This document shows, piece by piece, positions 1-12,128 of a DNA stretch of 64,000 nt. The stretch spans positions 960,001-1,024,000 of the forward strand of contig OZ250183.1 of the NCBI GenBank assembly GCA_965238225.1, read 5' to 3'. How positions within the stretch are numbered: the first letter of the stretch is position 1; every line of letters starts with the position of its first letter. Below the pieces are notes generated by a model, which saw nothing but the letters and a program-made list of their open reading frames with translations, was not told the DNA's origin and made no database searches. The stretch comes from Gammaproteobacteria bacterium (GTDB lineage: Bacteria > Pseudomonadota > Gammaproteobacteria > Eutrophobiales > Eutrophobiaceae). Position numbers and translations under genes: made by a program.

Positions 1-644
1 TAACGTGCCGCTTTAGATACTGATTGTTCTATTGCTTTGCCTAATTCAGGAGTTATTGCCCGCTCAACCATCACCTGCTCGCAACCAATTAATTCGCCAG
101 TTTCTTCGAAGATACAGGTAGCACCATTTTTGACCAATTTATCGAAACATTTGCCCACAGCAGGGTTGGCAGATATTCCGCTGGTACCATCAGATCCGCC
201 ACAAATGGTGCCAACGACCAGTTCATCCAAGTTCATATTAACTTGTTTAACATTGGCAATTTCAGATAATATTTTTTTGACAGATATAAGGCCAGCATCG
301 ATGGTTTTTTTGGTTCCTCCAGTTTTCTGAATGATCAGAGTTTCAACCGGTCGACCGCTATCTCGGATAATTTGATGAAGAGATTCACGATCAAAACCTT
401 CACATCCTAATGACATCAGTAACACACCGCCAACATTCGAATGAGTACAAAGTGCTTTCATGATTTTTAATGCATAGTCATTAGGAAAACAACCAGGGAA
501 ACCGATTAAATGTACTGAAGGATCATTGCTCTGGGTAACTATTGATCGTGCGACATGATGGGCGCATTCAACCAAATATACGACGATAGTGACATTGCGA
601 ATGCCTTTTTTATTGTCTTTTCGGAGAAAACCTTTCACATGCAT
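1..644 (-). CDS. UxaA/GarD-family sugar-acid dehydratase, large subunit (5' part; runs off the window start)
   Basis: Not in the ORF track. Manual translation from ATG at 644 gives MHVKGFLRKDNKKGIRNVTIVVYLVECAHHVAR...GFPGCFP...HSNVGGVLLMSLGCEGF...GTICGGSDGTSGISANPAVG, typical of the altronate dehydratase family. Confidence 0.9.
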   Translation of the reverse strand, partial: MHVKGFLRKDNKKGIRNVTIVVYLVECAHHVARSIVTQSNDPSVHLIGFPGCFPNDYALKIMKALCTHSNVGGVLLMSLGCEGFDRESLHQIIRDSGRPVETLIIQKTGGTKKTIDAGLISVKKILSEIANVKQVNMNLDELVVGTICGGSDGTSGISANPAVGKCFDKLVKNGATCIFEETGELIGCEQVMVERAITPELGKAIEQSVSKAAR

Positions 645-663
645 GTTCCTATTTTAAATCTTG

Positions 664-960
664 CTAATTCTCCAGCAGTTTTTCGCGCGTGTGTGGGGAT
701 ATGTAATCACTCTTCATGTTGTTAAAGTGAATATGTTCACCCGGCTGAATATCCTGCAGGGCAGAACCAATAGCGACACCGTACTTAATAACTTTATCCC
801 CTTGTTTGATATTACGTCGAGACACCTTGTGACCAAGGTCTATTTCATTTATCAGCACTAGTTTCTCATTTTCAATGCTAATATTTTCACCCGCCTTGGA
901 ATATTGACAACATACTAATACGTTATCGTTTGGGTGTAGCAGAATAAATTTACTTCGCAT
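664..960 (-). CDS. SAF-domain small subunit of a split UxaA-family dehydratase
   Basis: LLHPNDNVLV...GHKVSRRNIKQGDKVIKYGVAIGSA...IQPGEHIHFNN SAF motif; lies directly upstream of the large subunit. Confidence 0.9.
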   Translation of the reverse strand: MRSKFILLHPNDNVLVCCQYSKAGENISIENEKLVLINEIDLGHKVSRRNIKQGDKVIKYGVAIGSALQDIQPGEHIHFNNMKSDYISPHTREKLLEN

Positions 961-1011
961 TCAACGACTTGTTTCTATAATTTGTTATGTTTGCCAGCCT
1001 CGATCAAAGGA

Positions 1012-1848
1012 TCAAAGACTATAAAAAGTCTGAGCATTATGACCTAGAATACGAATTTGTTCATCCACGCCTAACGACTGTATAAACCGATCCACCATAT
1101 TGTACCACGAGCGGTAATTAGAAGACATATTCACAACCGGCCAATCACTGCCCCACATTAGTCTTTTTGCTCCGAAGCTGTCCAACAGATGCTGCATATA
1201 GGGTTCTATTACCTCGTATGATGGATTATCTCCAGTTTCGGTCAAAAGACCAGACAGCTTGCAGTAAGCATTGGTGTCACTGGCAATCAAACTAATGTTA
1301 TCCGCCCAAGGTTGAAAGGAGTTGTTGAAAATTTCTGGTTTGGCACCATGATCAATGACAACCTTCAGGTTTGGATGACGACGCAATAAGGCGTGCAGAT
1401 TTTGTATGTGTTGAGGTTTTATCAGCGCATCAAATGTTAGCCCCAGATCGGTCAATTTATCGTAGATGAGTTGTAATTCAGGGAGTAGCATCCATTCTGG
1501 ATCAGCAATGTCCTGTATCATTGGGCGAATACCTAGGAAAAAAGAATGTTCCGATAATTGTTCGATATTAGATATTGCGGTCTTCTTTTCTAAGTCAACC
1601 CAACCTACAACGCCCGCTATGAAATCCGTTTCTTCAGCCAATTCTAACAGATAAAAGGTTTCTTCAAGAGTCGGTGCAGCCTGCACTAGGATAGTTTTAT
1701 TAATTCCAGCCTGCTTCAGATGAGGTAGTAAGTCGGATGGCTGAAAGTTCTTGTACAAGGTTGTCAGTTTTTCTGTCAACCAGCCGTAATCACCACGACT
1801 TATCTGCCAGAAATGTTGATGACTGTCAATACATACTGAATGCGGCAC
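1012..1848 (-). CDS. Amidohydrolase_2 family sugar lactonase (L-fuconolactonase-like)
   Basis: IDSHQHFW, VIDHGAKP, YCKLSGL and RLMWGSDWPV motifs; operon context. Confidence 0.85.
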   Translation of the reverse strand: MPHSVCIDSHQHFWQISRGDYGWLTEKLTTLYKNFQPSDLLPHLKQAGINKTILVQAAPTLEETFYLLELAEETDFIAGVVGWVDLEKKTAISNIEQLSEHSFFLGIRPMIQDIADPEWMLLPELQLIYDKLTDLGLTFDALIKPQHIQNLHALLRRHPNLKVVIDHGAKPEIFNNSFQPWADNISLIASDTNAYCKLSGLLTETGDNPSYEVIEPYMQHLLDSFGAKRLMWGSDWPVVNMSSNYRSWYNMVDRFIQSLGVDEQIRILGHNAQTFYSL

Positions 1849-1852
1849 CCAC

Positions 1853-2890
1853 TCAATCTCCTTCTACCGGCACAGGCGCGGACGGATGCAATAACTCACC
1901 GTCCTTGAGTGCCTGCCAAAATTCTGCTGGGATGGAGTATGTGAATAATTCCAGTGTTTGTTTAACCCTTTGGGGTTTACCCATGCCGACAGTCACGTTG
2001 ACGACGCTGGGATGGGCGAGAGGAAATTGTAATGCCGCTGCGGCTAAAGGAATCTGATAGCTGTCACAGATTAATTCGATTTGACGGATGCGGTCAATAA
2101 TCTCTGCCGAAGCTGGCTCATAATCGTAGTGAAGAGGTTTTTCGGATTTGCTGCCTAGAGCAAGAATTCCAGAATTATAGACACCGCCTGCAATGACAGA
2201 GGATTTTCGAGATTCGCATTTAGGCAGGAAAGTATCAAGCGCTTTTTGTTCAAGCAAGGTATATCGTCCAGCCAATAAGAAACAATCAAAATCCCCGTAT
2301 TCCATTGCCTCTTCACAAACCTCATACTCGTTCACACCAAGACCAAAAGCACGTATTTGACCAGAAGAACGTAATTCATCTAATGCTTTATACCCGCTGT
2401 TCATGGCTATCTTAAACAGATTCGCGTGATCTTTACCATGGGTTAGCTTGCCAATATCGTGCATGTAAATGATATCGATACGACTTAACCCAAGACGTTG
2501 CAGGCTGTCTTCAAAAGAGCGCATAATACCGTCATAACTATAGTCATATACTGCCTCAAAAGGCATAGCGGAATAATAAGCACACCGGCCAATATTTTCA
2601 TCGACTGGTGCACAGGGCGCTAACATGCGTCCAACCTTGGTGGACAGGATAAAGCTCTTTCGATCTTGCTGTCGCAATACATCGCCAACCCTTCTCTCGC
2701 TAAGACCGAAGCCATAGTAGGGAGCTGTATCTATGTAGCTCAGACCACTATCAAGCGCGCAACGCACTGTTTCCCTAGCATCTTCATCGCTTACTGGATG
2801 ATACAGGTTACCCAAAGTGGCGCAGCCGAGTCCCAGCGTTACAATGTCAAGATCGGTACTGCCAATTTTTCGAGTGCTCAGGTTCTGCAT
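1853..2890 (-). CDS. Aldo/keto reductase, D-threo-aldose (L-fucose/D-arabinose) 1-dehydrogenase-like
   Basis: GLGCATLGNLY, DTAPYYGFGLSERRVG, LSTKVGR, YDYSYDGIMRSFEDSLQRLG, LLAGRYTLLEQ. Confidence 0.85.
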   Translation of the reverse strand: MQNLSTRKIGSTDLDIVTLGLGCATLGNLYHPVSDEDARETVRCALDSGLSYIDTAPYYGFGLSERRVGDVLRQQDRKSFILSTKVGRMLAPCAPVDENIGRCAYYSAMPFEAVYDYSYDGIMRSFEDSLQRLGLSRIDIIYMHDIGKLTHGKDHANLFKIAMNSGYKALDELRSSGQIRAFGLGVNEYEVCEEAMEYGDFDCFLLAGRYTLLEQKALDTFLPKCESRKSSVIAGGVYNSGILALGSKSEKPLHYDYEPASAEIIDRIRQIELICDSYQIPLAAAALQFPLAHPSVVNVTVGMGKPQRVKQTLELFTYSIPAEFWQALKDGELLHPSAPVPVEGD

Positions 2891-2902
2891 AGTAAAATTT
2901 AT

Positions 2903-2914
2903 GTTGTATATGTG
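2903..2914. promoter_or_regulatory. Candidate GntR/FadR-type operator site (GTTGTATATGTG) upstream of the AKR operon
   Basis: Shares a GTTG(T/C)RTA core with sites at 3347-3358, 5509-5520 and 5527-5539. Confidence 0.4.
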
Positions 2915-2942
2915 AAATCATGTAATAATATCAGAGGGCTGT

Positions 2943-2968
2943 CAATCAGCAAACGCAATCAGCAAACG
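2943..2968. repeat. Perfect 13-bp tandem duplication (CAATCAGCAAACG)x2
   Basis: Read directly from the sequence. Confidence 0.9.
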
Positions 2969-3346
2969 TAAAGATGATAGCTGTTTTTTTTACTGTTTTA
3001 ACCGTTCAATTTAATTGTTAGATTTTATTGGTGTTTGCTGAAGCGTCTCGACAAATTAGAATGTTCGAGGAACATTTAAGCAACTGGAAAGCATTTAGAT
3101 TGTCTAAAGCAAAAATAAGCACTATTATCAAAGGAGTTCGTAAATAGGGATTTGAAAAAATTAAAAGCCTGCAAGTACAAGGCGTTATTGGTATCGGTTG
3201 TCCCGTCTTTAATTTTTTTCGGTGAGATTATTGCAGCATTAGTGACCCCTTTTCCTGAACATTTGGATGGTTCTCAATAGTGTTAATTTTGCTGCAGCCA
3301 AGGAAAATACTCGGTAAAGTCGCGCAATCAATTCCTGTAGAACTCG

Positions 3347-3358
3347 GATATACACAAC
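3347..3358. promoter_or_regulatory. Candidate operator site upstream of fucU (reverse complement GTTGTGTATATC)
   Basis: Similar to the other three sites in the locus. Confidence 0.4.
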
Positions 3359-3398
3359 CAGATAAACTGATGTATTTATTTTTAAAGATGCAAAAAGA

Positions 3399-3836
3399 AT
3401 GTTAAAAAATGTCGATCCGATATTAGGACCTGACTTGCTTCAAGTATTGCGGGCAATGGGTCATGGGGATGAAATTGCCATTGTTGATGCTAATCATCCT
3501 GCTGAAACACGGGCAAAACGATTAATCAGAATGGATGGTCTCACCGCGACAAGAACGCTGGAAGCAATATTATCACTGTTACCATTGGATACTTTTGCAG
3601 AAACACCGGTACATACCATGCAGGCAGTAGATGCGCCAGATGAGATACCTGAAATTGTTACTGATTTTCAAGACATTGTTGCAAAGCGATCAGATGCAAC
3701 AATCAAATTTGGTGCGTTAGAGCGATTTGTTTTTTATGATCGTGTTTCTGCAGCATTTGCAGTTATAGCAACTGGCGAGCAACGTTTATATGGCAATATC
3801 ATCCTGAAAAAGGGCATTATTGAGCCTGATAAGTGA
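3399..3836 (+). CDS. fucU: RbsD/FucU family sugar mutarotase
   Basis: MLKNVDPILGPDLLQVLRAMGHGDEIAIVDANHP...LERFVFYDR...VIATGEQRLYGNIILKKG. Confidence 0.9.
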   Translation: MLKNVDPILGPDLLQVLRAMGHGDEIAIVDANHPAETRAKRLIRMDGLTATRTLEAILSLLPLDTFAETPVHTMQAVDAPDEIPEIVTDFQDIVAKRSDATIKFGALERFVFYDRVSAAFAVIATGEQRLYGNIILKKGIIEPDK

Positions 3837-3916
3837 TTTGTAACTACTATTTAGACAAGGTAAGCAGTCTAGTTAACTTACATACCATTTAAAGTAGTGA
3901 AATAGGAATACAGTTT

Positions 3917-5053
3917 ATGACAAAGTTTAATGGTCTTGGTATGACACTGGGGAACCTGTCCCGTTTATCATCTGCGAAATCACGTTCTATCTCACCTGAA
4001 AATTTTACTGGTGAATCTGGAAAAGGCGGGATGGCGACCGAGGGGACTGGAGCTTCAGCAGCAAGGGAGCTTGGTCAGGGCTGGAAAATATCACCATCGG
4101 TTGAACTTGCGCCTGGTGTTGATTTTACTTTAGCCGATATTCAGACAGGTGGCGCAATTCAGCAGATATGGATTACATCAATGGGGACTAAAAAACGTGA
4201 CCTCATTTTGCGCATGTACTGGGATGATCAAAAACAGCCATCAGTGGAAGTACCGATTGGAGATTTTTTTTGTTGTGGATTGGAACATTACGCCCACGTG
4301 TCCTCATTACCTGTGTGTGTCAATCCAGGTTTGGCATTTAGCTGTTTCTGGGAAATGCCTTATCGGAGTAACGCTAGAATCACCTTAGAAAACCGAGATC
4401 CAAGCCAATCTGCGACGGTGTATTACCAGATCAATTATACAGAAACAGAGGTGCCAAAAGACTGCGCCTATTTCCACGCACAGTTTCGTCGTACTAATCC
4501 AGTACCTTACAAGGGATTACATGTGCTGCTTGATGGTGTGCAGGGCAGGGGGCACTATGTAGGCACCTATATGGTTTGGGGGGTTCATAATTCTGGTTGG
4601 TGGGGCGAAGGTGAGATTAAGTTCTTCATTGACGACGACACGGATTTCCCAACGATCTGCGGCACGGGAACCGAGGATTATTTTCTAGGTTCGCATAATT
4701 TTGATGTTGGCACTGCAAAAGCAGAAAATGGGTATCCGAACGCCTATTCAGAATACTCGACAGCTTATGCGGGCGTCCCAGAAATACGGCGCCCGGATGG
4801 TGTTTATCAGTCTCAACTACGCTTTGGAATGTATCGTTGGCATATTCCAGATCCCATTCGCTTTGCGAAAAAACTCGACGTAACTATCCAAGCTCTGGGT
4901 TGGCGAGACTTCTGCAACTGGGGCGGGGACATCAAACAGCGGCGGTATCTACCCTTGCAGGACGATCTCTCATCTGTAGTTTTCTGGTATCAGACCTTGC
5001 CGACCGCTATTTTTCCTGAATTACCTGACCGAGATACTCTGGAACTGAACTAA
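3917..5053 (+). CDS. DUF2961 / glycoside hydrolase family 172 (alpha-D-arabinofuranosidase/alpha-D-fructofuranosidase-like), no signal peptide
   Basis: SRSISPENFTGESGKGGMA, LRMYWDD...PSVEVPIGDFF, YFHAQFRR, GWWGEGE...GTGTEDYF, YRWHIPDPIRF. Confidence 0.88.
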   Translation: MTKFNGLGMTLGNLSRLSSAKSRSISPENFTGESGKGGMATEGTGASAARELGQGWKISPSVELAPGVDFTLADIQTGGAIQQIWITSMGTKKRDLILRMYWDDQKQPSVEVPIGDFFCCGLEHYAHVSSLPVCVNPGLAFSCFWEMPYRSNARITLENRDPSQSATVYYQINYTETEVPKDCAYFHAQFRRTNPVPYKGLHVLLDGVQGRGHYVGTYMVWGVHNSGWWGEGEIKFFIDDDTDFPTICGTGTEDYFLGSHNFDVGTAKAENGYPNAYSEYSTAYAGVPEIRRPDGVYQSQLRFGMYRWHIPDPIRFAKKLDVTIQALGWRDFCNWGGDIKQRRYLPLQDDLSSVVFWYQTLPTAIFPELPDRDTLELN

Positions 5054-5170
5054 ATCTGGATTCAGTTCTCGCTGCCAAAGATCAATGCGCGGTCTCACAA
5101 ACCACCACATGCATGTCAAGCTGCTTCCTTAGAGTATCAAATACTGATTGGCGTATTTGTAACCTGCCAA

Positions 5171-5484
5171 GGATCGTGTGGTCATTCCTTAGTTTTCGAG
5201 CGCCAGTCCTTCAGGCAAACCTAAAGCGCGAGATTCTTGCAGTTGATCCAGAACGCACTAAGCGCATAACCTAGAGTTAATAGACAGATTTGCGTTCTGT
5301 CCTGCACAAACGCAGGGGCATAGTCATCGACAATTTTAATACCCGAAAGCGTTGCCTATCTGCCAACCGGTCAGATATAAAATTCAGGGACTATAACGTT
5401 CATTGGACTTGCCCAATACCGACCAGAATATGCAACCGAATCGGTCTTTTTTATTTCTTCGCGTGCACTTACATCCCAAACTTA
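5171..5484 (-). mobile_element. Degenerate IS3-family transposase (OrfB integrase core) relic
   Basis: Minus-strand fragments across stops and frameshifts: FGM*VHAKK*KRPIR / NER / *SLNFISDRLADRQRFRVLK / IVDDY / LDQLQESRALGLPEGLALEN. These resemble the IS3 consensus LQVRTKKRKK...NERWSxDFVSDQLADGRRFRVLNIVDDYSREC...LDQL..RGLP...DNG. Confidence 0.75.
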
Positions 5485-5508
5485 TAGGGGCAAGATCACA
5501 TACATTTA

Positions 5509-5556
5509 TGTATATACAACAATGATGTTGCATACACAATATTGCTATGGTACTCT
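5509..5556 (+). promoter_or_regulatory. Sigma-70-like promoter of the TonB-dependent receptor, with two candidate operators at and just upstream of the -35
   Basis: TTGCAT(5528-5533)-17 nt-TACTCT(5551-5556) with TG extension. Palindrome TGTATATACA (5509-5518) lies just upstream, and GTTGCATACACAA (5527-5539) overlaps the -35. Confidence 0.5.
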
Positions 5557-5608
5557 GGCGTAGCGTTCGATGCTAATAGTGATTACTGTAATTCGTTAGC
5601 TATCCTTA

Positions 5609-5634
5609 GTTAATAGTGTTTGTTAATAGTGTTT
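5609..5634. repeat. Perfect 13-bp tandem duplication (GTTAATAGTGTTT)x2
   Basis: Read directly from the sequence. Confidence 0.9.
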
Positions 5635-5691
5635 AGGATACAGCTTTTATTTTGTTATCTTATAAATTAATGTATTGGGGGATTTAGTCCA

Positions 5692-8559
5692 ATGATGAAA
5701 CTTCAGTTAGAAAAACCGTTATTTGCAGTTCTTGTCACGCTACTTATAGGCACCGCGCCTGTATTTGCGCAAGAAGAGCCTTCGAAAGAAAAGGCACAGG
5801 AAGAAGAAGTAGTAGTAAGGGGCATTAGGCAATCGGTAGAAGAATCTCTTAATATCAAACAGGATGCGACAAATTTTGTTGATGCTATTAGCTCAGAAGA
5901 CATTGGCAAATTACCGGATCAAAACGTCGCAGAAGCTCTACAGCGTGTAGCTGGTGTTGCGATTCAGCGTAGCCGAGGTGAAGGTGATTTTATTTCAATA
6001 CGCGGATTAGGTCCAGATTTTGTCCGCGGTACCGTAAATGGCCATTCCCTTTTAAGTGCTACAGAAGCGGTTGACCCGATTTTCAATGGTAATTTTATAA
6101 CCAGCACTGGTCGTGCAACCAATTTCGATATTCTCCCATCCGAAATTGTTAAGACCTTGGAGGTTTTCAAATCATCATCGGCTAAGCATGTTGAAGGTGC
6201 TATTGGCGGCAGCGTCAATGTAGTAACGCTTGATCGTTTGGCTTCAGACGACACTTATGTTGCCTCTACGACCGGATCATACCGACGTTTTAACGAAGAG
6301 TTCGATCCATCCGTTGCTGGTGTAGGCAGCTGGACAAACGAAGCCGGTGACCTGAGCGGGCTGTTATCAATTTCCCATAATACACGTAATATTCGGGAAG
6401 ATTTCTCTCGTATGTTTGGTTGGTTTCCTTCTTTTGGTATAGTAGATACTATGTTGGATACCGACAATGATGGTGTCGCTGATACTGCGCCTTCAGCAGT
6501 ACCATTTCCCTTGTCCAATAATGCCGAGGTCTATGATGAAGATAGGCAGCGCAATACCCTAGTAGGTACCATTACATGGCAACAGTCCGACAATACAGAT
6601 ATCGTTCTTGATATGCTTTACAGTAAGCGCAATGTGGATGAATCGCATTCTAACCTGATTTTTCTACCTATCATCCGACATGGACCTGCTGCGGATAATG
6701 GTAATGATCTGGCATCAAGCACGGTTAATACCGATGGCAGTATCCAAGTCAGGGATCTTCTAACCAATGGTGCTTTTTCTACGCTTCCTACCACTCTCCG
6801 ACCGGAATTGACTACTGATCTGCAGGATTATGAGGATTCATTGCTGTCTTTTTCTATTAACATGGCTAAGCGTATCGATGTTTGGACACTTACGGCGGAT
6901 GCAAGTTACTCGAAGGCGGAAGGCAAAAATAGATTTGATAGAGTCAGGATCGATGGCGATAACGGTACGTTCGCATTCAATACCACCATTGGCGATGATG
7001 GGTTTGACATTACACAGACAAACCAAAATGGCACTGCCAGCAATCTGGGAAATCCTGGGAATTTTGTGATATCCGTTTTCGATGATCGTTCTGCTACCAA
7101 CGAAGATGAGGAAGTTGCCTTACAATTTGATATAGAGAGGGCAATAAATAGTGATGTTTTCTCATCTCTCAGTTTTGGCGGGCGCTATAGAACCCGTGAA
7201 AAAAATGTTGAGCGTGCCACCAACGGTAACGGTATTTCCGTTACAGGTGCCGATATTACATTGGCATCTGCTGGTAGTTACTTGACGGGCGCAGATAATT
7301 TTCTAGATGGTACTTGGAACGGCACTATTGACTATTCCAGCTTGGTCTTTCCGGGCAACGCAGCGGCAAGGGCTGCGCTAGCAAGTTATATGGCGACCAA
7401 TAATTTATCGACGGCGCTTAGCGCGGATCCCTTCGGCACCTTCAGCATAACAGAGGACACCTTAGCGGCTTATGTGCAGATTGATCTAGATGGCGCAATT
7501 GGCAGTGTAAATTATGTTGGTGATATTGGTTTTCGAGTAGTATTAACAGATACTATTATTGGAGGCAATGATGCGGAGTTCCGTATTACGGATACTGGCG
7601 GAACGGATACGACTGTTTTTGATACTTTAACCACAGGTGAGGCCACGCCTATTGAGTTCGAAGAATCGTATACAAATGTGCTGCCGAGCATGAATTTTCG
7701 TTTCGAGTTAATAGAGGAGTTATTCCTTCGCGTCTCTGCGTCGAGAACTTTAACACGACCGACATTTAATAACCTAGCGCCAGCTTTTCAAATCAATGCG
7801 AATTCATCTACCAATTTGAATGGAGATAACTATGCGGTTTCTTTGTCAGCAGGTAACCCAGATTTGAGACCATATGATTCCGAGAATTATGACATTGGTA
7901 TCGAGTGGTATTTTGCAGAAAGTAGTGCGGCGTATCTCGGTCTGTTCCACAAAGAGATAGATAATTTTATTGCTGTGACTACCAGCAATGATGTCTCAAC
8001 ATTGGCAGGCAAATCAATACGGGCGATTGGTGTAGAACAGGACGGTACGTCTGCGCCAATTAATATTGACCAGGTGAGCCAGCCGAGTAACCAAGGTAAA
8101 GCCGATATTACTGGTCTTGAAATGGGTTATCAGCAAGCATTTGACAATGGCTTTGGGTTTATCGGAAACATAACCTTGGCCGAGAGTTCAGCTAAACTTA
8201 TTACAACAAATGATGATATTCGTTTTCCTGGTGTGTCTGATATGAGCTATAACCTAACTGGATATTTTGAAAGAGGTCCATTTTCCTCACGCGTTTCTTG
8301 GAGTTATCGTGGTGAATATTTAATTGTCCCTGATGCTATCGGTTTTGGAGGTCAAATATTTCAAGATGGTTATGGTCAGCTTGACGCAACAACAAGCTAC
8401 CAGCTATCAGACAGCCTGACTTTATTTGCAAATGCTGTCAATCTAACTGATGAAACTGCGAAACAATATCAGGTCTTGCCGAATGGGATTGGCTCAAGAT
8501 TCCACTCAAATGCAATAGTCGGTCCACGTTTCGCAATTGGGATCAGAGCTTATTACTAA
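5692..8559 (+). CDS. TonB-dependent receptor (Xanthomonas/Caulobacter carbohydrate-uptake type)
   Basis: Signal peptide, TonB box EEVVVRGIR, plug VDAISSEDIGKLPDQNVAEALQRVAGV, AGNPDLRPY, aromatic C-terminus. Confidence 0.93.
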   Translation: MMKLQLEKPLFAVLVTLLIGTAPVFAQEEPSKEKAQEEEVVVRGIRQSVEESLNIKQDATNFVDAISSEDIGKLPDQNVAEALQRVAGVAIQRSRGEGDFISIRGLGPDFVRGTVNGHSLLSATEAVDPIFNGNFITSTGRATNFDILPSEIVKTLEVFKSSSAKHVEGAIGGSVNVVTLDRLASDDTYVASTTGSYRRFNEEFDPSVAGVGSWTNEAGDLSGLLSISHNTRNIREDFSRMFGWFPSFGIVDTMLDTDNDGVADTAPSAVPFPLSNNAEVYDEDRQRNTLVGTITWQQSDNTDIVLDMLYSKRNVDESHSNLIFLPIIRHGPAADNGNDLASSTVNTDGSIQVRDLLTNGAFSTLPTTLRPELTTDLQDYEDSLLSFSINMAKRIDVWTLTADASYSKAEGKNRFDRVRIDGDNGTFAFNTTIGDDGFDITQTNQNGTASNLGNPGNFVISVFDDRSATNEDEEVALQFDIERAINSDVFSSLSFGGRYRTREKNVERATNGNGISVTGADITLASAGSYLTGADNFLDGTWNGTIDYSSLVFPGNAAARAALASYMATNNLSTALSADPFGTFSITEDTLAAYVQIDLDGAIGSVNYVGDIGFRVVLTDTIIGGNDAEFRITDTGGTDTTVFDTLTTGEATPIEFEESYTNVLPSMNFRFELIEELFLRVSASRTLTRPTFNNLAPAFQINANSSTNLNGDNYAVSLSAGNPDLRPYDSENYDIGIEWYFAESSAAYLGLFHKEIDNFIAVTTSNDVSTLAGKSIRAIGVEQDGTSAPINIDQVSQPSNQGKADITGLEMGYQQAFDNGFGFIGNITLAESSAKLITTNDDIRFPGVSDMSYNLTGYFERGPFSSRVSWSYRGEYLIVPDAIGFGGQIFQDGYGQLDATTSYQLSDSLTLFANAVNLTDETAKQYQVLPNGIGSRFHSNAIVGPRFAIGIRAYY

Positions 8560-8600
8560 AAAAGCTCGGCCTATTGTTTCTCCCGCGTTAGGAAGCTAAA

Positions 8601-8652
8601 AGACAAGCGCGCTTTTTTGCCCCCGCCCATATCACAAAAAAGCGCTGTGTCT
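8601..8652 (+). other. Intercistronic stem-loop after the TBDR gene
   Basis: GCGCTTTTTTG (8609-8619) pairs with CAAAAAAGCGC (8635-8645); no downstream U-tract. Confidence 0.55.
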
Positions 8653-8742
8653 CTCTTCATGCCTGCCGTGTGCCCCGTGTGCGTGTAGTCGTGTTCTTCG
8701 GTATGAGTTACGCATTAATAGTCTTCATTAATTTCCCTGATA

Positions 8743-10101
8743 TTGGTATTCGTTGTGAACGTTAAGTTAAGTGTTAAAGAGAAAGTTGGTTTTAGCTTAG
8801 GCGATATGGCTGGCAATTTTGTTTATCAATCTGTTGTCCTTTTATTAGCGTACTATTATACCGAATTCTATGGTCTTGATGCTGCCGTTGTTGCGAGTAT
8901 ATTTTTGTTTGTTCGGATATTTGATGCAGTGACAGACCCTGTAATGGGGATCATAGTTGACAGAACCAATTCTCGGTGGGGTAAGTATCGACCCTATTTA
9001 TTATTCTTGTGTGTCCCATATGCCGTGATGTCCATTTTGGTCTTCACGGTTCCTGATTTCGAGGTTCAAGGCAAGATTATATATGCTTATGTCACCTATA
9101 GCATGTTAATGGTTCTGTTCACTGCTACAAACATTCCCTATTTTGCGCTAGGAAGTGTGATGACCGCAGATCCTGCGGAACGTATCTCTCTAAACTCATA
9201 TCGTTTTGTGGCAGCGACTGGCGGAGGTCTTGTTGTCACGGCATTACTGATTCCAATGGCAGATTATCTGGGGCAGGGGAATAAGGCGATGGGTTATCAG
9301 TTGGCAATGATGGTTATGGCAGTTATCTCTGTCGTGTTGTTCTTGATTTGTTTTAGCTCGACAAAGGAGCGGGTGAAACCGACTAATACTGGATATAGGA
9401 ATTTTAAGAATGATATAAAACAGGTTTTTCAAAACGATCAATGGAGATTATTAGGGTTAGCGGTTTTTGTCATGGTAACTGCACAAACGATAAAAGCCAC
9501 GATCAGTATTTATTACATAACTTATTATGTTGAAGATGCATCCAAGATGGTTTCCCTATTTCTTTCTCTATGGATGATTGGCGGTATGTTTGGCAGTGCT
9601 TTGTCCAGCAAATTGACTCAGATAATATGTAAAAAACGATCTTGGGTTATGTTATGCGTGATCAGTGCAATTTTATCGTCTATGACATTTTTAATTGCAC
9701 CACAATATTTTATTGCTGTTCTGGTTATGCAATTTTTTGTGGGATTTTTCAACCAAATGATGGCACCATTAATATTTTCCACTATGGCGGAAGTGACTGA
9801 TTACGGTGAATTACAAAATAATCGTCGACTGGATGGGCTGATATCATCATTTACGCTATTTACTTTAAAAATGGGGCTAGCTGTAGGTGGTGCGATAGCT
9901 GTATATTTATTATCCGTTTATGGCTATCAGAGTGGAGGGGTTGAACAATCCTCAGAAACAATAAATGGTATGTTGATGATATTTACATTGATCCCAGCCG
10001 TTGGTTTTCTAATTACGGCCGGCATTATACAGGTTATGAAATTAGACAGTAAGACTGTGCAGGAAAACGCATCTTTATTACAGGCACTCAGGGTAGGTTG
10101 A
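8743..10101 (+). CDS. GPH-family (glycoside-pentoside-hexuronide:cation symporter) MFS transporter
   Basis: LSVKEKVGFSLGD, RIFDAVTDPVMGIIVDRTNSRWGKYRPY, about 12 hydrophobic segments; start may be GTG 8755. Confidence 0.92.
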   Translation: MVFVVNVKLSVKEKVGFSLGDMAGNFVYQSVVLLLAYYYTEFYGLDAAVVASIFLFVRIFDAVTDPVMGIIVDRTNSRWGKYRPYLLFLCVPYAVMSILVFTVPDFEVQGKIIYAYVTYSMLMVLFTATNIPYFALGSVMTADPAERISLNSYRFVAATGGGLVVTALLIPMADYLGQGNKAMGYQLAMMVMAVISVVLFLICFSSTKERVKPTNTGYRNFKNDIKQVFQNDQWRLLGLAVFVMVTAQTIKATISIYYITYYVEDASKMVSLFLSLWMIGGMFGSALSSKLTQIICKKRSWVMLCVISAILSSMTFLIAPQYFIAVLVMQFFVGFFNQMMAPLIFSTMAEVTDYGELQNNRRLDGLISSFTLFTLKMGLAVGGAIAVYLLSVYGYQSGGVEQSSETINGMLMIFTLIPAVGFLITAGIIQVMKLDSKTVQENASLLQALRVG

Positions 10102-10114
10102 CTATCTAGAATCC

Positions 10115-11263
10115 ATGAGACTCAGTGATTGTCATAATATCAACGATATGCGCAAATTCGCTAAGCAGCGGTTGCCAGCACCTGTATTTCATTACATAGA
10201 CGGTGCTGCTGATGACGAAGTGACCTATCGACGGAACACACAGGCGTTTGAAGACTGTGATTTAGTTCCCAACGTGTTAACAGGAGTAGAGAATATTGAT
10301 GTGTCAACTACTGTTATGGGACGCAAAATTGATATGCCTTTCTTTCTCTCGCCAACTGCGTTACAAAGACTTTTTCACCATGAAGGTGAACGTGCAGTAG
10401 GGCGCGCCGCTGAGAAATTTAATATTTACTTCGGCCTATCATCACTTGGGACGGTCAGCATAGAAGAAATTGGCAGCCTGATTAAAACGCCTAAATTTTT
10501 CCAACTCTATGCGCATAAAGATAAGGGTCTGACAGAAAATATGATCGAACGCTGTAAGGATGCAAAATTTGATGCTTTAGTCTTAACTGTTGATACGATT
10601 GTCAGTGGTAATCGTGAGCGAGATTTATATACCGGGTTTACAAGCCCGGTTAAGTTAACATTGGGCAGTTTATTCAGTTTTGCGACTCACCCAAATTGGA
10701 CTTTGAATTATTTTTTACGTGATAAATTTGAGTTGTCTCAAATAAAAGACTACCTTGATGAAGGAACCAGCATACCACTGTCAATTGCAGAGTATCTTAA
10801 TACGATGCTTGATCAATCAATAGACTGGAAAGCGGCTGAAGAGATCAATAAAAATTGGGGAGGCCATTTTTGTATCAAAGGTATTATGTCGGCAGAAGAC
10901 GCTAAACACGCAGTAGACATAGGGGCAACGGCAATTATGGTGTCTAACCACGGAGGCAGACAACTTGATGGCTCAAGGACTCCGTTTGAACAACTTGCCG
11001 AAGTCGTCGATGCGGTCGGAGATAAAGTTGATGTTATCTGCGACGGAGGCATCCGAAGAGGCACGCATGTACTTAAAGCACTATCAGTTGGTGCAAAAGC
11101 ATGTTCGGGCGGTAGAATGTATTTATATGCACTCTCTGCATTTGGTGAAGCTGGTGTTGATCGCCTGCTCAATCTCATGAAAAATGAGATTGAACGAGGC
11201 ATGAAATTGATGGGTTGTAAATCGGTAAATGAGTTAAGTCGTCATGCTCTACGGTTTCGATAA
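10115..11263 (+). CDS. lldD: FMN-dependent alpha-hydroxy-acid dehydrogenase (L-lactate dehydrogenase/glycolate oxidase family)
   Basis: FHYIDGAADDE, VSNHGGRQLDG, DGGIRRGTHVLKAL; substrate not certain. Confidence 0.85.
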   Translation: MRLSDCHNINDMRKFAKQRLPAPVFHYIDGAADDEVTYRRNTQAFEDCDLVPNVLTGVENIDVSTTVMGRKIDMPFFLSPTALQRLFHHEGERAVGRAAEKFNIYFGLSSLGTVSIEEIGSLIKTPKFFQLYAHKDKGLTENMIERCKDAKFDALVLTVDTIVSGNRERDLYTGFTSPVKLTLGSLFSFATHPNWTLNYFLRDKFELSQIKDYLDEGTSIPLSIAEYLNTMLDQSIDWKAAEEINKNWGGHFCIKGIMSAEDAKHAVDIGATAIMVSNHGGRQLDGSRTPFEQLAEVVDAVGDKVDVICDGGIRRGTHVLKALSVGAKACSGGRMYLYALSAFGEAGVDRLLNLMKNEIERGMKLMGCKSVNELSRHALRFR

Positions 11264-11477: not shown

Positions 11478-12128
11478 TTAGTTATTATGTTTTTTTCTGT
11501 GTTTTTCTGCAATCAATTCATCCATTTCTTTTTTTCGTTGATTTATGATGGAGCTAAAGGTTAGGGCACTTTGAGGGATATGTTCAAAATATTCAGTTAA
11601 CTTATTGTATTGAATCTGCAATAGCTGAGTTGTTTTCAGAGTGCGGACGTAAGCAGTTCTTGCTTCACCTGAAAAATAGCCCATTTCCCCTATAGAATCA
11701 CCAGTGCCGACTTTTGCAATGAAAATTTCTTCTCCGTTATTATCCACATGGAAAACTTCGGCAAGCCCGTAGGCAATCACAAACAAAGAAGCATCTTTTT
11801 CTCCTTGAATGATAAAAGTTTCATTGGGCAGATAACTTACTTCCGTAAAATATTTGCTTAGCGTAGCAAGCTCCATGGGTGACGATTCCGAGAAGATGGG
11901 GCATGCCGCTAATCTATCAATGCGTTGTTTTCGCAGACTGTTGTCGAGTTCCTCTTGGGTTATTATGGACTCTTTCACAAGCAGCTCTCCAATGCGCAGG
12001 CTTTTTTTGTCACCCACAAATGAAGAATTCATTTGTTTTTCGACCACATTATTTATCGCGCCCTTGGATAATAGAAGATATTCTCCAAGTTTAAACTCGC
12101 CTGTTCTGTCTAGATCATTGTCTGCCAA
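11478..12128 (-). CDS. MshEN-like motif plus cyclic-nucleotide-binding domain protein
   Basis: RIGELLVKESIITQEELDNSLRKQ followed by a cNMP domain with GEMG...RTA phosphate-binding cassette; no HTH. Confidence 0.8.
   Translation of the reverse strand: MADNDLDRTGEFKLGEYLLLSKGAINNVVEKQMNSSFVGDKKSLRIGELLVKESIITQEELDNSLRKQRIDRLAACPIFSESSPMELATLSKYFTEVSYLPNETFIIQGEKDASLFVIAYGLAEVFHVDNNGEEIFIAKVGTGDSIGEMGYFSGEARTAYVRTLKTTQLLQIQYNKLTEYFEHIPQSALTFSSIINQRKKEMDELIAEKHRKKHNN

Follow-up and report, generated by a model that had tools for sequence, protein, structure and literature searches.

A probable gene island for scavenging small alpha-D-arabinofuranosides, pairing a predicted cytoplasmic GH172 hydrolase with non-phosphorylative oxidation

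The left end of the DNA stretch analysed here (the window, 64,000 nucleotides) belongs to a gene island some 17 kb long (window positions about -4860 to 11263) that, at a probability of roughly 65% on the sequence evidence, was horizontally acquired and serves to scavenge small alpha-D-arabinofuranosides, most simply D-arabino-oligosaccharides. The earlier note had placed eight genes in one locus, and all of them lie where it put them, with strong family matches in profile searches that are far beyond chance. Its interpretation, in which a glycoside is imported and D-arabinofuranose (D-Araf) is released by GH172, mutarotated and oxidized, is the best-supported one, strengthened by the identity of the GH172 protein, the genes left of the window, recurrence of the design in Caulobacteraceae and a locus in a same-family relative. 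The parts of the island are known singly, and their combination is so far undescribed.

The locus has the status of an island and was not recovered from 10 same-genus genomes by genome comparison, and the stretch was found only in sequencing runs of the organism itself. The host is a bacterium with a small genome, and its genome sequence is complete. Directly observed gene content and order within the window are as follows.

3..644, minus strand: UxaA/GarD-type dehydratase, large subunit, N-terminal 214 of 398 aa (PF04295, 1e-25; PF20629, 4.5e-25)
664..960, minus strand: UxaA-type dehydratase, SAF small subunit, 98 aa (PF08666)
1012..1848, minus strand: Amidohydro_2 sugar lactonase, 278 aa (PF04909, 7e-43)
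1853..2890, minus strand: aldo-keto reductase (AKR), 345 aa (PF00248, 6e-44)
2891..3398, no strand: intergenic, divergent promoter region separating fucU from the AKR operon
3399..3836, plus strand: FucU/RbsD-family mutarotase/pyranase, 145 aa (PF05025, 7e-40)
3917..5053, plus strand: GH172 (DUF2961), 378 aa (PF11175, 6e-93, 311 bits against a cut-off of 27)
5054..5691, no strand: region upstream of the TBDR gene, 638 bases, with repeats
5692..8559, plus strand: TonB-dependent outer-membrane receptor (TBDR), 955 aa, signal peptide (TIGR01782)
8743..10101, plus strand: glycoside-pentoside-hexuronide:cation (GPH) symporter, 452 aa (PF13347, 2e-95)
10115..11263, plus strand: FMN-dependent alpha-hydroxy-acid dehydrogenase (LldD-like), 382 aa (PF01070, 3.5e-130)

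The GH172 protein, import genes and partner searches

The GH172 protein is a predicted cytoplasmic exo-alpha-D-arabinofuranosidase. Its family, which the earlier note had left to an HMM check, is confirmed by the PF11175 match listed above. Of the proteins with solved structures, the nearest relative is ExoMA1 (8IC8, E 3e-120; about 52% identity, 190/367 positions, counted by eye from the alignment), described in PMC10509167 as intracellular and strict for alpha-D-Araf, and reported there to have no signal sequence. The proposed cytoplasmic location holds as far as the sequence goes, as no hydrophobic leader is present at the N-terminus and residue 11 aligns to residue 4 of signal-less ExoMA1, where the alignment starts. 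The protein retains the acid/base glutamate E231, the nucleophile E253, D254 and W228 (roles as given in PMC8605356 and in section 13 of the 2026 preprint 10.64898/2026.08.13.744632), and both glutamates, D254 and both tryptophans are conserved in 80/80 GTDB GH172-orthologue loci. Asparagine is conserved in 69 of these 80 at the position of N261, the counterpart of ExoMA1 Asn253. At position 260 in the -1 subsite the window protein has His, compared with Trp in ExoMA1 and Tyr in 77/80 orthologues, and the pocket near C5 may differ because of this His.

The TBDR belongs to the TonB-Xanth-Caul subfamily (TIGR01782, 620 bits against a cut-off of 310) and has no match at E <= 1e-20 among 24 same-family genomes, while the symporter scores 370 bits against TIGR00792 (cut-off 231). 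Three direct copies of TAATAGTG lie upstream of the TBDR gene, at 5574, 5611 and 5624, and an Rfam search of 5054..5691 returned no family. The AKR-fucU intergenic region contains an inverted pair of the motif AATAGTG at 3120 (-) and 3276 (+); promoter-like sites in 2891..3398 do not exceed those of shuffled sequences.

The reported lack of a fucosidase in the visible part extends to the complete genome, where GH29 (PF01120) and the GH95 catalytic domain (PF22124) have no match, both profiles being matched in control genomes; there would thus be no route to bound fucose. Neither a GH116 beta-D-arabinofuranosidase nor a GH183 endo-D-arabinanase was matched in this genome, the GH183 blank being a weak one as that search matched no control genome either.

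Oxidative genes and the proposed pathway

The AKR is a candidate D-arabinose/L-fucose 1-dehydrogenase. Among solved structures it matches L-galactose dehydrogenases best (about 2e-25), and a D-arabinose/L-fucose dehydrogenase of AKR type has been characterized (PMC6336799, section 13). For FucU the best NCBIfam model is L-fucose mutarotase (115.8 bits, under the cut-off of 141), and for the lactonase it is L-fucono-1,5-lactonase (194.8 bits, under the 400-bit cut-off), the latter protein also matching the solved structure 4DLF at 5.5e-32. The UxaA-type dehydratase is split into two genes, a form also found in two of the loci discussed below (L004 and L100). Its large-subunit gene crosses the left edge of the window, ends 552 bases further left and matches galactarate dehydratase 6U7L at 1e-35, and its SAF subunit aligns to GarD model positions 3-78. 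According to PMC6336799, L-fuconate and L-galactonate are substrates of UxaA-type enzymes, the two-subunit L-fuconate form being assigned by gene context only (section 8).

The minus-strand operon comprises eight genes, the AKR gene first and the diketo-acid hydrolase gene last. The search to the left of the window that the earlier note had proposed recovered the expected catabolic genes, but no regulator gene lies within the island. These genes are given in coordinates of L001, the locus of the window extended leftward (window position + 15000).

L001 14423..13236, minus strand: KDP dehydratase (FAH-like, KdaD/XylX-type), 395 aa (structure matches)
L001 13189..11750, minus strand: aldehyde dehydrogenase (ALDH; NCBIfam match)
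L001 11732..11004, minus strand: SDR of L-KDF/D-KDP 4-dehydrogenase type (L-KDFDH match)
L001 11016..10141, minus strand: FAH-type diketo-acid hydrolase (8GSR match)

[quoted passage not shown] The KDP dehydratase matches 9KKT (1.4e-118), an entry without a functional name for which a literature search gave no paper, and the Sulfolobus solfataricus 2-keto-3-deoxy-D-arabinonate dehydratase 2Q18 (1.5e-21). The best NCBIfam models of the ALDH are alpha-ketoglutaric semialdehyde dehydrogenase and 2,5-dioxovalerate dehydrogenase, and this KDP dehydratase-ALDH branch suits a pentose rather than a hexose or 6-deoxyhexose. For the hydrolase, the match is 8GSR (9.5e-93). The SDR matches Herbaspirillum huttiense L-KDFDH (1.6e-84; PDB codes confirmed in PMC11199699) and retains the Trp that touches the C6 methyl of L-KDF in that enzyme, which prefers L-KDF over D-KDP 12-fold (PMC11199699). 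The alpha-hydroxy-acid dehydrogenase scores 320 and 292 bits against L-lactate dehydrogenase models, both under their cut-offs, and equivalog-level NCBIfam cut-offs are reached by none of the lactonase, FucU, ALDH, hydrolase and LldD-like proteins.

We infer the enzyme activities, the substrate and the co-regulation of the island genes from sequence. A glycoside would be carried over the outer membrane by the TBDR and over the inner membrane by the GPH symporter, and the GH172 enzyme, having no signal peptide, would cut terminal alpha-D-Araf off in the cytoplasm. The FucU-family protein would hasten conversion of the released furanose or anomer to the form used by the AKR, which would oxidize D-arabinose to a lactone; the lactonase would open this product and the two-subunit dehydratase would yield 2-keto-3-deoxy-D-pentonate (D-KDP). 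Two exits from D-KDP appear to be encoded in the minus-strand operon: Route II, leading to 2-oxoglutarate through the KDP dehydratase and ALDH, and Route III, leading to pyruvate and glycolate through the SDR 4-dehydrogenase and FAH-type hydrolase. The FMN-dependent dehydrogenase would have the role of using up what Route III yields besides pyruvate, namely glycolate or, from L-fucose, L-lactate. The catabolic enzymes probably also accept L-fucose; their types are published as promiscuous for this sugar, so that dual use may occur.

Recurrence of the design in other genomes

A neighbourhood survey, as the earlier note had suggested, indicates that the co-occurrence is real but confined to a minority of loci. 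With partner genes counted at >= 40% identity, FucU, AKR, lactonase or KDP dehydratase is present in 10 of 160 sampled GH172-orthologue loci and two or more of them in only 4; none of the 160 gave a homologue of the TBDR or the FMN dehydrogenase from the window. FucU homologues adjoin GH172 orthologues in L002, L004, L032, L100 and L113, and MFS_2 symporters lie close to them in L004, L030, L066, L100 and L113. The Caulobacteraceae MAG locus L004 contains a TBDR, a split UxaA and the series AKR-FucU-lactonase-KDP dehydratase-GH172, along with a GntR regulator, an MFS_2 symporter and an ALDH; Route III genes are absent from it, and its gene order is repeated in L100. The design of TBDR, MFS_2/GPH symporter, GH172, FucU and oxidative enzymes thus recurs independently in a Caulobacteraceae genome.

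In the same-family relative G012, homologues of the AKR (45%) and KDP dehydratase (51%) directly precede three secreted paralogues, whose family matches DUF4185 in 47/47 members. The AF2 model (pLDDT 91.9) has the endo-D-arabinanase EndoMA1 as its top match (3e-13; next 1.6e-6), which suggests that the paralogues are GH183-like endo-D-arabinanases. Genes for a DUF2961 (GH172) protein, a UxaA and an ALDH are also found no more than 20 kb away.

Rival readings and known systems

The island could instead be an L-fucose 'exploiter' module that oxidizes free L-fucose (or L-galactose) from other organisms through Route II/III to pyruvate and L-lactate, the lactate then being oxidized by the LldD-like enzyme, with GH172, KDP dehydratase and ALDH as passengers or a side activity. 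We regard this as unlikely. The best NCBIfam names (L-fucose mutarotase, L-fucono-1,5-lactonase, L-lactate dehydrogenase) suit it, although the fucose-named models all fall under their cut-offs. It also draws on the methyl-contacting Trp of the SDR and the L-KDF preference of L-KDFDH, on the context-based assignment of the two-subunit UxaA type to L-fuconate, and on the 'L-fucose degradation II' rule for fucose exploiters given in PMC13668718, under which the genes would fall. Yet three co-operonic genes, those for GH172, the KdaD/XylX-like dehydratase and the ALDH, find no explanation in it, and for transport the island has a GPH symporter of glycoside type and a TBDR rather than a fucose permease. 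Moreover, L004 pairs GH172 with Route II only, lacking the SDR and hydrolase needed for the L-fucose route, and G012 couples AKR and KDP dehydratase to the GH183-like arabinanases.

Two further readings concern the GH172 substrate. It is improbable that the enzyme acts on homomorphous furanosides, for example beta-L-fucofuranosides or beta-L-galactofuranosides, in a locus degrading an L-Fucf/L-Galf glycan. By stereochemical reasoning these share the ring stereochemistry of alpha-D-Araf, the downstream enzyme types take the L-fucose and L-galactose series (the AKR being nearest to solved L-galactose dehydrogenases, and UxaA types acting on L-fuconate and L-galactonate), and His260 differs from the Trp or Tyr of relatives; but L-Fucf and L-Galf glycans are very rare, a literature search found no GH172 with either activity, and the KDP dehydratase-ALDH branch is pentose-fitting. 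Action on alpha-D-fructofuranosides or difructose dianhydride I, with coincidental oxidative neighbours, is very improbable. The window protein does match alphaFFase1, the founding GH172 member (PMC8605356), at 4.7e-32, but the ExoMA1 match is better by nearly 90 orders of magnitude, and Asn261 stands where alphaFFase1 has Gly299, which leaves space for the fructose hydroxymethyl group that ExoMA1 Asn253 excludes (PMC10509167). The island also contains no fructose-handling gene.

Read as a D-arabinofuranoside system, the island resembles the D-arabinan locus of Microbacterium arabinogalactanolyticum (GH183 EndoMA1/2, GH172 ExoMA1, GH116 ExoMA2 and an ABC transporter, as described in PMC10509167) in its intracellular, signal-less ExoMA1-clade GH172 acting on imported oligosaccharides, with D-arabinose as the hydrolysis end product. 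It differs in having no GH183 or GH116 match in its genome (the former blank weak), in import by TBDR and GPH symporter rather than an ABC system, and in non-phosphorylative oxidation rather than isomerase and kinase. Dysgonomonas gadei PUL42 (PMC10115798; preprint 10.64898/2026.08.13.744632) is likewise Gram-negative, with GH172 exo-alpha-D-arabinofuranosidases and an 'L-fucose' enzyme described as handling D-arabinose. Its GH172 enzymes, however, are only distant relatives (8AH3, 3.6e-28), and it is a Bacteroidota PUL with endo-arabinanases, whereas the island has a lone cytoplasmic GH172 with an oxidative pathway, and its 183-base TBDR-symporter gap is too short for another gene.

In enzyme types and logic the island is like Routes II and III of H. 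huttiense and Paraburkholderia mimosarum (PMC6336799, PMC11199699), which share the AKR, UxaA/GarD-type dehydratase, FAH-type D-KDP dehydratase, ALDH, L-KDFDH-type SDR and diketo hydrolase. In the D-arabinose-induced cluster of PMC6336799, the AKR dehydrogenase, UxaA-type D-arabinonate dehydratase and FAH-type D-KDP dehydratase are characterized and Route III is described. Those clusters were reported for free monosaccharides, and what the D-arabinose pathway means physiologically was left open by the authors in section 13; in the island the pathway is accompanied by GH172, the FucU-family mutarotase, the TBDR, the GPH symporter and the alpha-hydroxy-acid dehydrogenase, and its dehydratase, unlike theirs, is two-subunit. 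Sulfolobus solfataricus also uses a FAH-superfamily D-KDP dehydratase (KdaD, 2Q18) followed by 2,5-dioxopentanoate dehydrogenase, but its dehydrogenase (MDR) and dehydratase (enolase) belong to other superfamilies (PMC6336799, section 13), and its pathway has neither a glycosidase nor an import module joined to it. If the D-arabinofuranoside reading of the island is true, this bacterium imports small D-Araf sugars, frees D-Araf inside the cell and oxidizes it without phosphorylation.

The island and its genome setting

The eight genes singled out earlier from the sequence alone (a TonB-dependent receptor (TBDR), GPH symporter, GH172 protein, FucU, aldo-keto reductase, lactonase, UxaA-family dehydratase and alpha-hydroxy-acid dehydrogenase) are all there, and none of their family matches can be put down to chance. 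They belong to an island of approximately 17 kb that reaches past the left edge of the window, in a source genome that is a single contig of 1,722,049 bases rated 100% complete. With 15 kb of leftward sequence added (L001, coordinates shifted by 15,000), the minus strand carries a tightly spaced operon of eight genes, from the aldo-keto reductase to a hydrolase. The earlier note had looked to this side for further sugar-acid genes and a regulator; the former are there (a predicted 2-keto-3-deoxy-D-pentonate (KDP) dehydratase, aldehyde dehydrogenase, SDR and hydrolase), whereas the island contains no regulator gene.

Features of the island, in window coordinates
2890..1853, minus strand: aldo-keto reductase (AKR; PF00248)
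1848..1012, minus strand: Amidohydro_2 lactonase (family match)
960..664, minus strand: small subunit of a UxaA/GarD-type dehydratase (SAF)
644.. past the window edge, minus strand: large subunit of the UxaA/GarD-type dehydratase, 398 aa (PF04295, PF20629)
Left of the window (L001), after the UxaA large subunit, minus strand: FAH-like protein, 395 aa (9KKT, KdaD 2Q18)
Left of the window (L001), minus strand: aldehyde dehydrogenase (ALDH), 479 aa (NCBIfam models)
Left of the window (L001), minus strand: SDR, 242 aa (8XWK)
Left of the window (L001), minus strand: FAH-family hydrolase, 291 aa (8GSR)
2891-3398: divergent promoter gap of 508 bases between the AKR operon and fucU
3399-3836, plus strand: FucU (RbsD_FucU Pfam)
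3917-5053, plus strand: DUF2961/GH172 (PF11175)
Between GH172 and the receptor gene: gap of 638 bases (gene positions)
5692-8559, plus strand: TonB-Xanth-Caul-type receptor (family match)
8743-10101, plus strand: GPH symporter (family match)
10115-11263, plus strand: FMN-dependent alpha-hydroxy-acid dehydrogenase (family match)

In the gap that separates fucU from the AKR operon, the TAATAGTG/AATAGTG motif forms an inverted pair (3120, minus strand; 3276, plus strand), and three direct copies lie upstream of the receptor gene (5574, 5611 and 5624, plus strand). With 80 copies of TAATAGTG in the genome, approximately 0.8 would be expected per 16.5 kb, and four fall in the two promoter gaps of the island. 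The motif is a candidate shared operator, the regulator of which would be encoded elsewhere. No riboswitch or other RNA was found upstream of the receptor gene, and promoter and terminator scans gave counts not above those of shuffles.

Several features mark the island as acquired. The flanking genes, for glycerate kinase and a cNMP-binding protein, are syntenic in four relatives, with 9-15 kb of unrelated genes between them. A search of ten same-genus genomes (63-100% complete) found the GH172, KDP dehydratase and receptor in none, and for the receptor 24 genomes of the same family likewise gave nothing at E <= 1e-20. At the left edge, a stretch of 1.7 kb (L001:8437-10140, genome 953437-955140) contains no open reading frame of at least 100 aa and matches no Pfam or Rfam family; positions 953521-954070 translate to decayed pieces (36-74% identity) of an ancestral gene of approximately 420 aa, the one positioned after glycerate kinase in other genomes of the genus. 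The stretch is a scar of the replacement that brought the island in. GC content is 0.428 in the island and 0.401 in the genome as a whole, which puts the island within the top 6.6% of 16-kb windows, and the genome has only three TBDR matches.

Positions 12000-64000 of the window, as sampled, encode MtaB, a tail-specific protease, GlnD, BamA, DnaE, TilS and a sigma-54 two-component pair; this core housekeeping content places the island in the core chromosome. The counterpart of the cNMP-binding protein (window 11478-12128) in a same-genus relative (G004:C1:2095175-2095786) has four in-frame stops and looks like a pseudogene. Elsewhere in the window organism's genome, a PQQ-dependent dehydrogenase of the methanol/ethanol family (G000:C1:1205357-1207060, minus strand) scores 654 bits against an equivalog cut-off of 480; the RuBisCO large subunit was not found in this genome, and no hexulose-phosphate synthase scored above cut-off. 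The four sequencing runs listed are all labelled with the species of the organism itself; two of these, both from a single sample, contain the stretch, and no RNA run containing it is among those listed. With sequencing runs of its own, the source organism appears to be an isolate.

A predicted arabinofuranosidase and a predicted oxidative pathway

The DUF2961/GH172 assignment proposed earlier was borne out by a profile search, in which the protein scores 311.1 bits with PF11175 (cut-off 27) and covers positions 2-235 of the 235 in the profile, and again on the genome. The best solved relative is the exo-alpha-D-arabinofuranosidase ExoMA1 (8IC8, 3e-120), at approximately 52% identity (about 190 of 367 positions, counted by eye); next come 4KQ7, the founding GH172 enzyme alphaFFase1 (7V1V) and 8AH3, near 1e-32. 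Alignment to solved relatives identifies E253 in GTGTEDYF as the nucleophile and E231 in WWGEG as the acid/base, roles held by E291 and E270 in alphaFFase1 (PMC8605356) and by E264 and E242 in Dg67, a GH172 of Dysgonomonas gadei (preprint 10.64898/2026.08.13.744632). D292 and W267 of alphaFFase1 align with D254 and W228, and all four positions (E253, E231, D254 and W228) are invariant in 80 of 80 GTDB orthologue loci. N261 aligns with Asn253 of ExoMA1, which is reported to block the 1-hydroxymethyl group of alpha-D-fructofuranose where alphaFFase1 has Gly299 (PMC10509167); 69 of the 80 orthologues have Asn here. The aromatic residue of the -1 subsite (W298 in alphaFFase1, W252 in ExoMA1) is not kept, being His260 in the window protein, and the 80 orthologues have Tyr (77), His (2) or Trp (1) at this position. 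Because alphaFFase1 W298A retained 16.5% of its activity on pNP-alpha-D-Araf (PMC8605356), we read His260 as variation and not as loss of function. ExoMA1 itself is described as an intracellular enzyme without a signal sequence that acts on imported arabino-oligosaccharides (PMC10509167). We predict from these alignments that the GH172 of the island is an ExoMA1-type enzyme acting on alpha-D-arabinofuranosides.

The other enzymes are of the types that make up a non-phosphorylative pathway described for D-arabinose (PMC6336799). There, an FAH-type KDP dehydratase, which has been characterized, leads to alpha-ketoglutaric semialdehyde (Route II), while a dehydrogenase and a hydrolase form a branch to pyruvate and glycolate (Route III; PMC6336799, Watanabe et al. 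2019); a Paraburkholderia mimosarum cluster of AKR, UxaA and KDP dehydratase is reported to be induced only by D-arabinose (PMC6336799). The island encodes all of the enzyme types in that report, together with a lactonase, FucU and an alpha-hydroxy-acid dehydrogenase. The best solved relatives of the AKR are L-galactose dehydrogenases (approximately 2e-25), and the characterized AKR-superfamily dehydrogenase (A19U_RS0129385) is reported to be equally good on D-arabinose and L-fucose (PMC6336799). The dehydratase of the island has two subunits of the UxaA/GarD superfamily (PF04295, PF20629 and SAF); the characterized D-arabinonate dehydratase C785_RS13685 is a single chain of UxaA/GarD type, and the heteromeric UxaA form has been assigned to L-fuconate by context only (both PMC6336799).

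For the FAH-like protein of 395 aa, database names are only the generic 'FAH family'. It matches 9KKT, which is listed without a functional name, at 1.4e-118, and the 2-keto-3-deoxy-D-arabinonate dehydratase KdaD of Sulfolobus (2Q18) at 1.5e-21; its closest relatives (65-71%) are on metagenome contigs and in a Gammaproteobacteria MAG, and the literature matches listed for 9KKT include no relevant paper. The ALDH scores best with models of alpha-ketoglutaric semialdehyde dehydrogenase and 2,5-dioxovalerate dehydrogenase, in both cases below the cut-off (558.9 bits against 770 for AlphKGSA_gudD). This pair, the putative KDP dehydratase and the ALDH, is what argues for a pentose.

Route III is represented by an SDR of L-KDFDH/BDH2 type and an FAH-type hydrolase. 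The SDR matches human DHRS6/BDH2 (4.4e-85) and the H. huttiense L-KDF 4-dehydrogenase 8XWK (1.6e-84), and its Trp240 aligns with the Trp of the final GGWS of L-KDFDH, the C-terminal hydrophobic residue for which a role is described, with PDB codes, in PMC11199699. The hydrolase matches the L-2,4-diketo-3-deoxyrhamnonate hydrolase 8GSR at 9.5e-93, with an NCBIfam score of 418.5 bits against a cut-off of 500. The alpha-hydroxy-acid dehydrogenase, which scores below cut-off for both lactate-dehydrogenase models, makes sense here because a 2-hydroxy acid is formed by Route III: D-arabinose would give glycolate, and L-fucose L-lactate. FucU passes the Pfam RbsD_FucU cut-off (137 against 25) but not that of the L-fucose mutarotase model PRK15420 (115.8 bits against 141), which places it at the level of the family only.

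Recurrence of the gene set in other genomes

One-genome-per-species (GTDB) contigs yielded at least 598 relatives of the GH172, and metagenome contigs at least 596. From each set the top 80 were kept, which come from many phyla and have 59-76% identity to the window protein, and their neighbours were queried by tblastn (E <= 1e-10, at least half of the query covered); only 42 of the 80 metagenome loci are 8 kb or longer.

Loci with a match to each island gene near a GH172 orthologue
FucU: GTDB 3/80, metagenome 2/80
AKR: GTDB 3/80, metagenome 1/80
Lactonase: GTDB 3/80, metagenome 4/80
KDP dehydratase: GTDB 4/80, metagenome 2/80
UxaA large subunit: GTDB 2/80, metagenome 1/80
UxaA small subunit: GTDB 1/80, metagenome 2/80
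ALDH: GTDB 1/80, metagenome 1/80
SDR: GTDB 3/80, metagenome 2/80
Hydrolase: GTDB 2/80, metagenome 2/80
GPH: GTDB 3/80, metagenome 2/80
TBDR: GTDB 0/80, metagenome 0/80
FMN dehydrogenase: GTDB 0/80, metagenome 0/80

Conserved co-occurrence of these genes, for which the earlier note had proposed a survey, holds in part: the link recurs, but in a minority, with at least one of FucU, AKR, lactonase and KDP dehydratase (at least 40% identity) in 10 of the 160 loci (L002, L004, L005, L022, L030, L032, L097, L100, L106 and L113) and two or more of them in four (L004, L032, L100 and L113). The link of GH172 to the pathway is real, yet most orthologues lie in unrelated contexts. Sequence clustering of the neighbours in the 80 orthologue loci gave no cluster common to more than seven loci. 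The 160 loci have 252 first neighbours, of which 119, drawn at random and coming from 97 loci, were assigned to Pfam families. The resulting tally was heterogeneous, led by ABC permease (6), AMP-binding (4, with AMP-binding_C likewise) and GH116/DUF608 (4), and included two each of AKR and Amidohydro_2.

One counterpart, L004 in a Caulobacteraceae MAG, has a TBDR and split UxaA, then AKR, FucU, lactonase, KDP dehydratase and GH172 in one direction, followed by a GntR/FCD regulator, PhyH dioxygenase, MFS_2 symporter and ALDH; Route III genes are absent from it. The metagenome locus L100 has the same gene order, and L066, from a Steroidobacteraceae MAG, carries a TBDR, MFS_2, PhyH and GH172. In L002, a MAG contig of 1,961 bases, GH172 is directly followed by FucU; at 76% identity this is the closest relative among the matches listed, no metagenome relative among them exceeding 67%.

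Two further observations concern these neighbourhoods. A PhyH Fe(II)/2-oxoglutarate dioxygenase (L004:11988-12752) occurs near the ExoMA1-type GH172 in 7 of 160 loci (L004, L100, L030, L066, L121, L112 and L122), several directly adjoining and with 55-85% identity among loci; it is also present in the G012 locus described below, after the GH183-like genes, and is missing from the island. The ExoMA1-type GH172 is itself unusually uniform and widespread among the best 160, being found in Bradyrhizobium, Caulobacteraceae, Armatimonadota, Chloroflexota, Planctomycetota, Verrucomicrobiota and others, mostly in loci without recognizable D-arabinan partner genes nearby.

Among 40 relatives of the window organism, a DUF2961 gene is found in G012 alone, a member of the same family but another genus. 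Its contig encodes a gluconolactonase-type lactonase, an enolase-type dehydratase, an HpcH aldolase, an AKR (45%) and a KDP dehydratase (51%). Immediately after the last two stand three tandem paralogues of 570 aa with signal peptides (L093:9852-15016, contig C10), and then PhyH, a second lactonase, an SDR, a BNR protein, the DUF2961 protein, a permease, a fused UxaA and an ALDH. The paralogues, 52-58% identical to each other, score 45-49 bits against DUF4185 as whole proteins (cut-off 39.5) and 25-31 bits as domains, with only the C-terminal 60 profile positions aligning, and neither sequence nor profile searches of the PDB gave a match. They have 503 homologues in the library (E <= 0.001), and all 47 members near full length that were aligned match DUF4185 and no other family. 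In a Foldseek search, the AF2 model built from these aligned sequences (pLDDT 91.9) is closest to the endo-D-arabinanase EndoMA1 (8IC1 and 8HHV, 3e-13), the next match being at 1.6e-6; a first model from a three-sequence alignment (pLDDT 30.4) was discarded. The paralogues belong to a divergent DUF4185/GH183 branch, and their confident model resembles EndoMA1. Within the family to which the window organism belongs, the G012 locus ties the route of AKR and KDP dehydratase to the breakdown of D-arabinan. Among the 160 loci, a GH183-like gene adjoins the ExoMA1-type GH172 in one (L056), a count obtained with queries of the G012 subfamily, which may miss canonical GH183.

D-arabinosides or free L-fucose as the substrate

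In the simplest mechanism, the island would serve to scavenge preformed alpha-D-arabinofuranosyl oligosaccharides or glycosides. Once imported, these would be hydrolysed in the cytoplasm by the ExoMA1-type GH172, and the released sugar would be oxidized to 2-oxoglutarate, or to pyruvate and glycolate. A D-arabinan utilization locus of the described type combines GH183, GH172 and GH116, whereas the window genome has GH172 and no match to GH116 (PF04685; the search responded in control genomes) or to GH183/DUF4185 (PF13810; the search responded in no control). The system thus lacks the full set for degrading arabinan, as would suit a scavenger of preformed oligosaccharides.

The chief competing reading is a pathway for free L-fucose. 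In its favour, the names of the best models lean to fucose, the dehydratase has two subunits, the SDR carries the Trp, and a rule quoted in PMC13668718 would call the gene set an L-fucose pathway. Such a pathway would leave the GH172, KDP dehydratase and ALDH unexplained, however, and would fit neither the Caulobacteraceae locus L004 nor G012. The absence of a fucosidase, remarked on earlier for the visible part, extends to the whole genome, in which neither GH29 nor GH95 has a match. Enzymes of these types are described in the literature as promiscuous, and use of both D-arabinose and L-fucose is therefore likely. In a bolder reading, to which we give a probability of roughly 40%, the island would be one example of a so far undescribed class of proteobacterial 'D-arabinoside scavenger' loci, composed of a TBDR, a GPH/MFS_2 symporter, a cytoplasmic ExoMA1-type GH172, a FucU-family protein and a kinase-free oxidative D-arabinose route.

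D-arabinan degradation by GH172 and GH183 has been described with phosphorylative use of D-arabinose in Actinomycetota and Bacteroidota, while the non-phosphorylative pathway was worked out on the free sugar, its physiological meaning being left open by the authors (PMC6336799). The text of PMC8812541, on 471 DUF2961 neighbourhoods, names carbohydrate enzymes, ABC transporters and FGGY kinases. Within the portions of the literature covered on GH172/DUF2961, D-arabinofuranosidase, D-arabinan and the oxidative D-arabinose route, GH172 is linked neither to the oxidative route nor, outside Bacteroidota, to a TBDR/GPH import module. The island joins these two literatures, as do the Caulobacteraceae counterpart and the GH183-bearing G012 locus, and together they suggest a source for the D-arabinose. 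The island also suggests, for Gram-negative bacteria without endo-arabinanases, a 'scavenger' living on D-arabinan fragments. As the gene set would pass the L-fucose rules quoted in PMC13668718, surveys of 'fucose exploiters' may include users of D-arabinose. Every enzyme of the island can be tested with published substrates, in an organism that is apparently an isolate.

If the scavenger reading is true, part of the 'L-fucose degradation II' reported in gene-rule surveys would be D-arabinose catabolism, and the FucU-family member would be a converter of D-arabinofuranose to the pyranose, or mutarotase, that does not serve fucose. [quoted passage not shown] The environment would also offer a common supply of free alpha-D-arabinofuranosyl oligosaccharides, derived from actinobacterial walls or from as yet undiscovered glycans, and this supply would be worth an acquired island of 17 kb even to a bacterium with a genome of 1.7 Mb.
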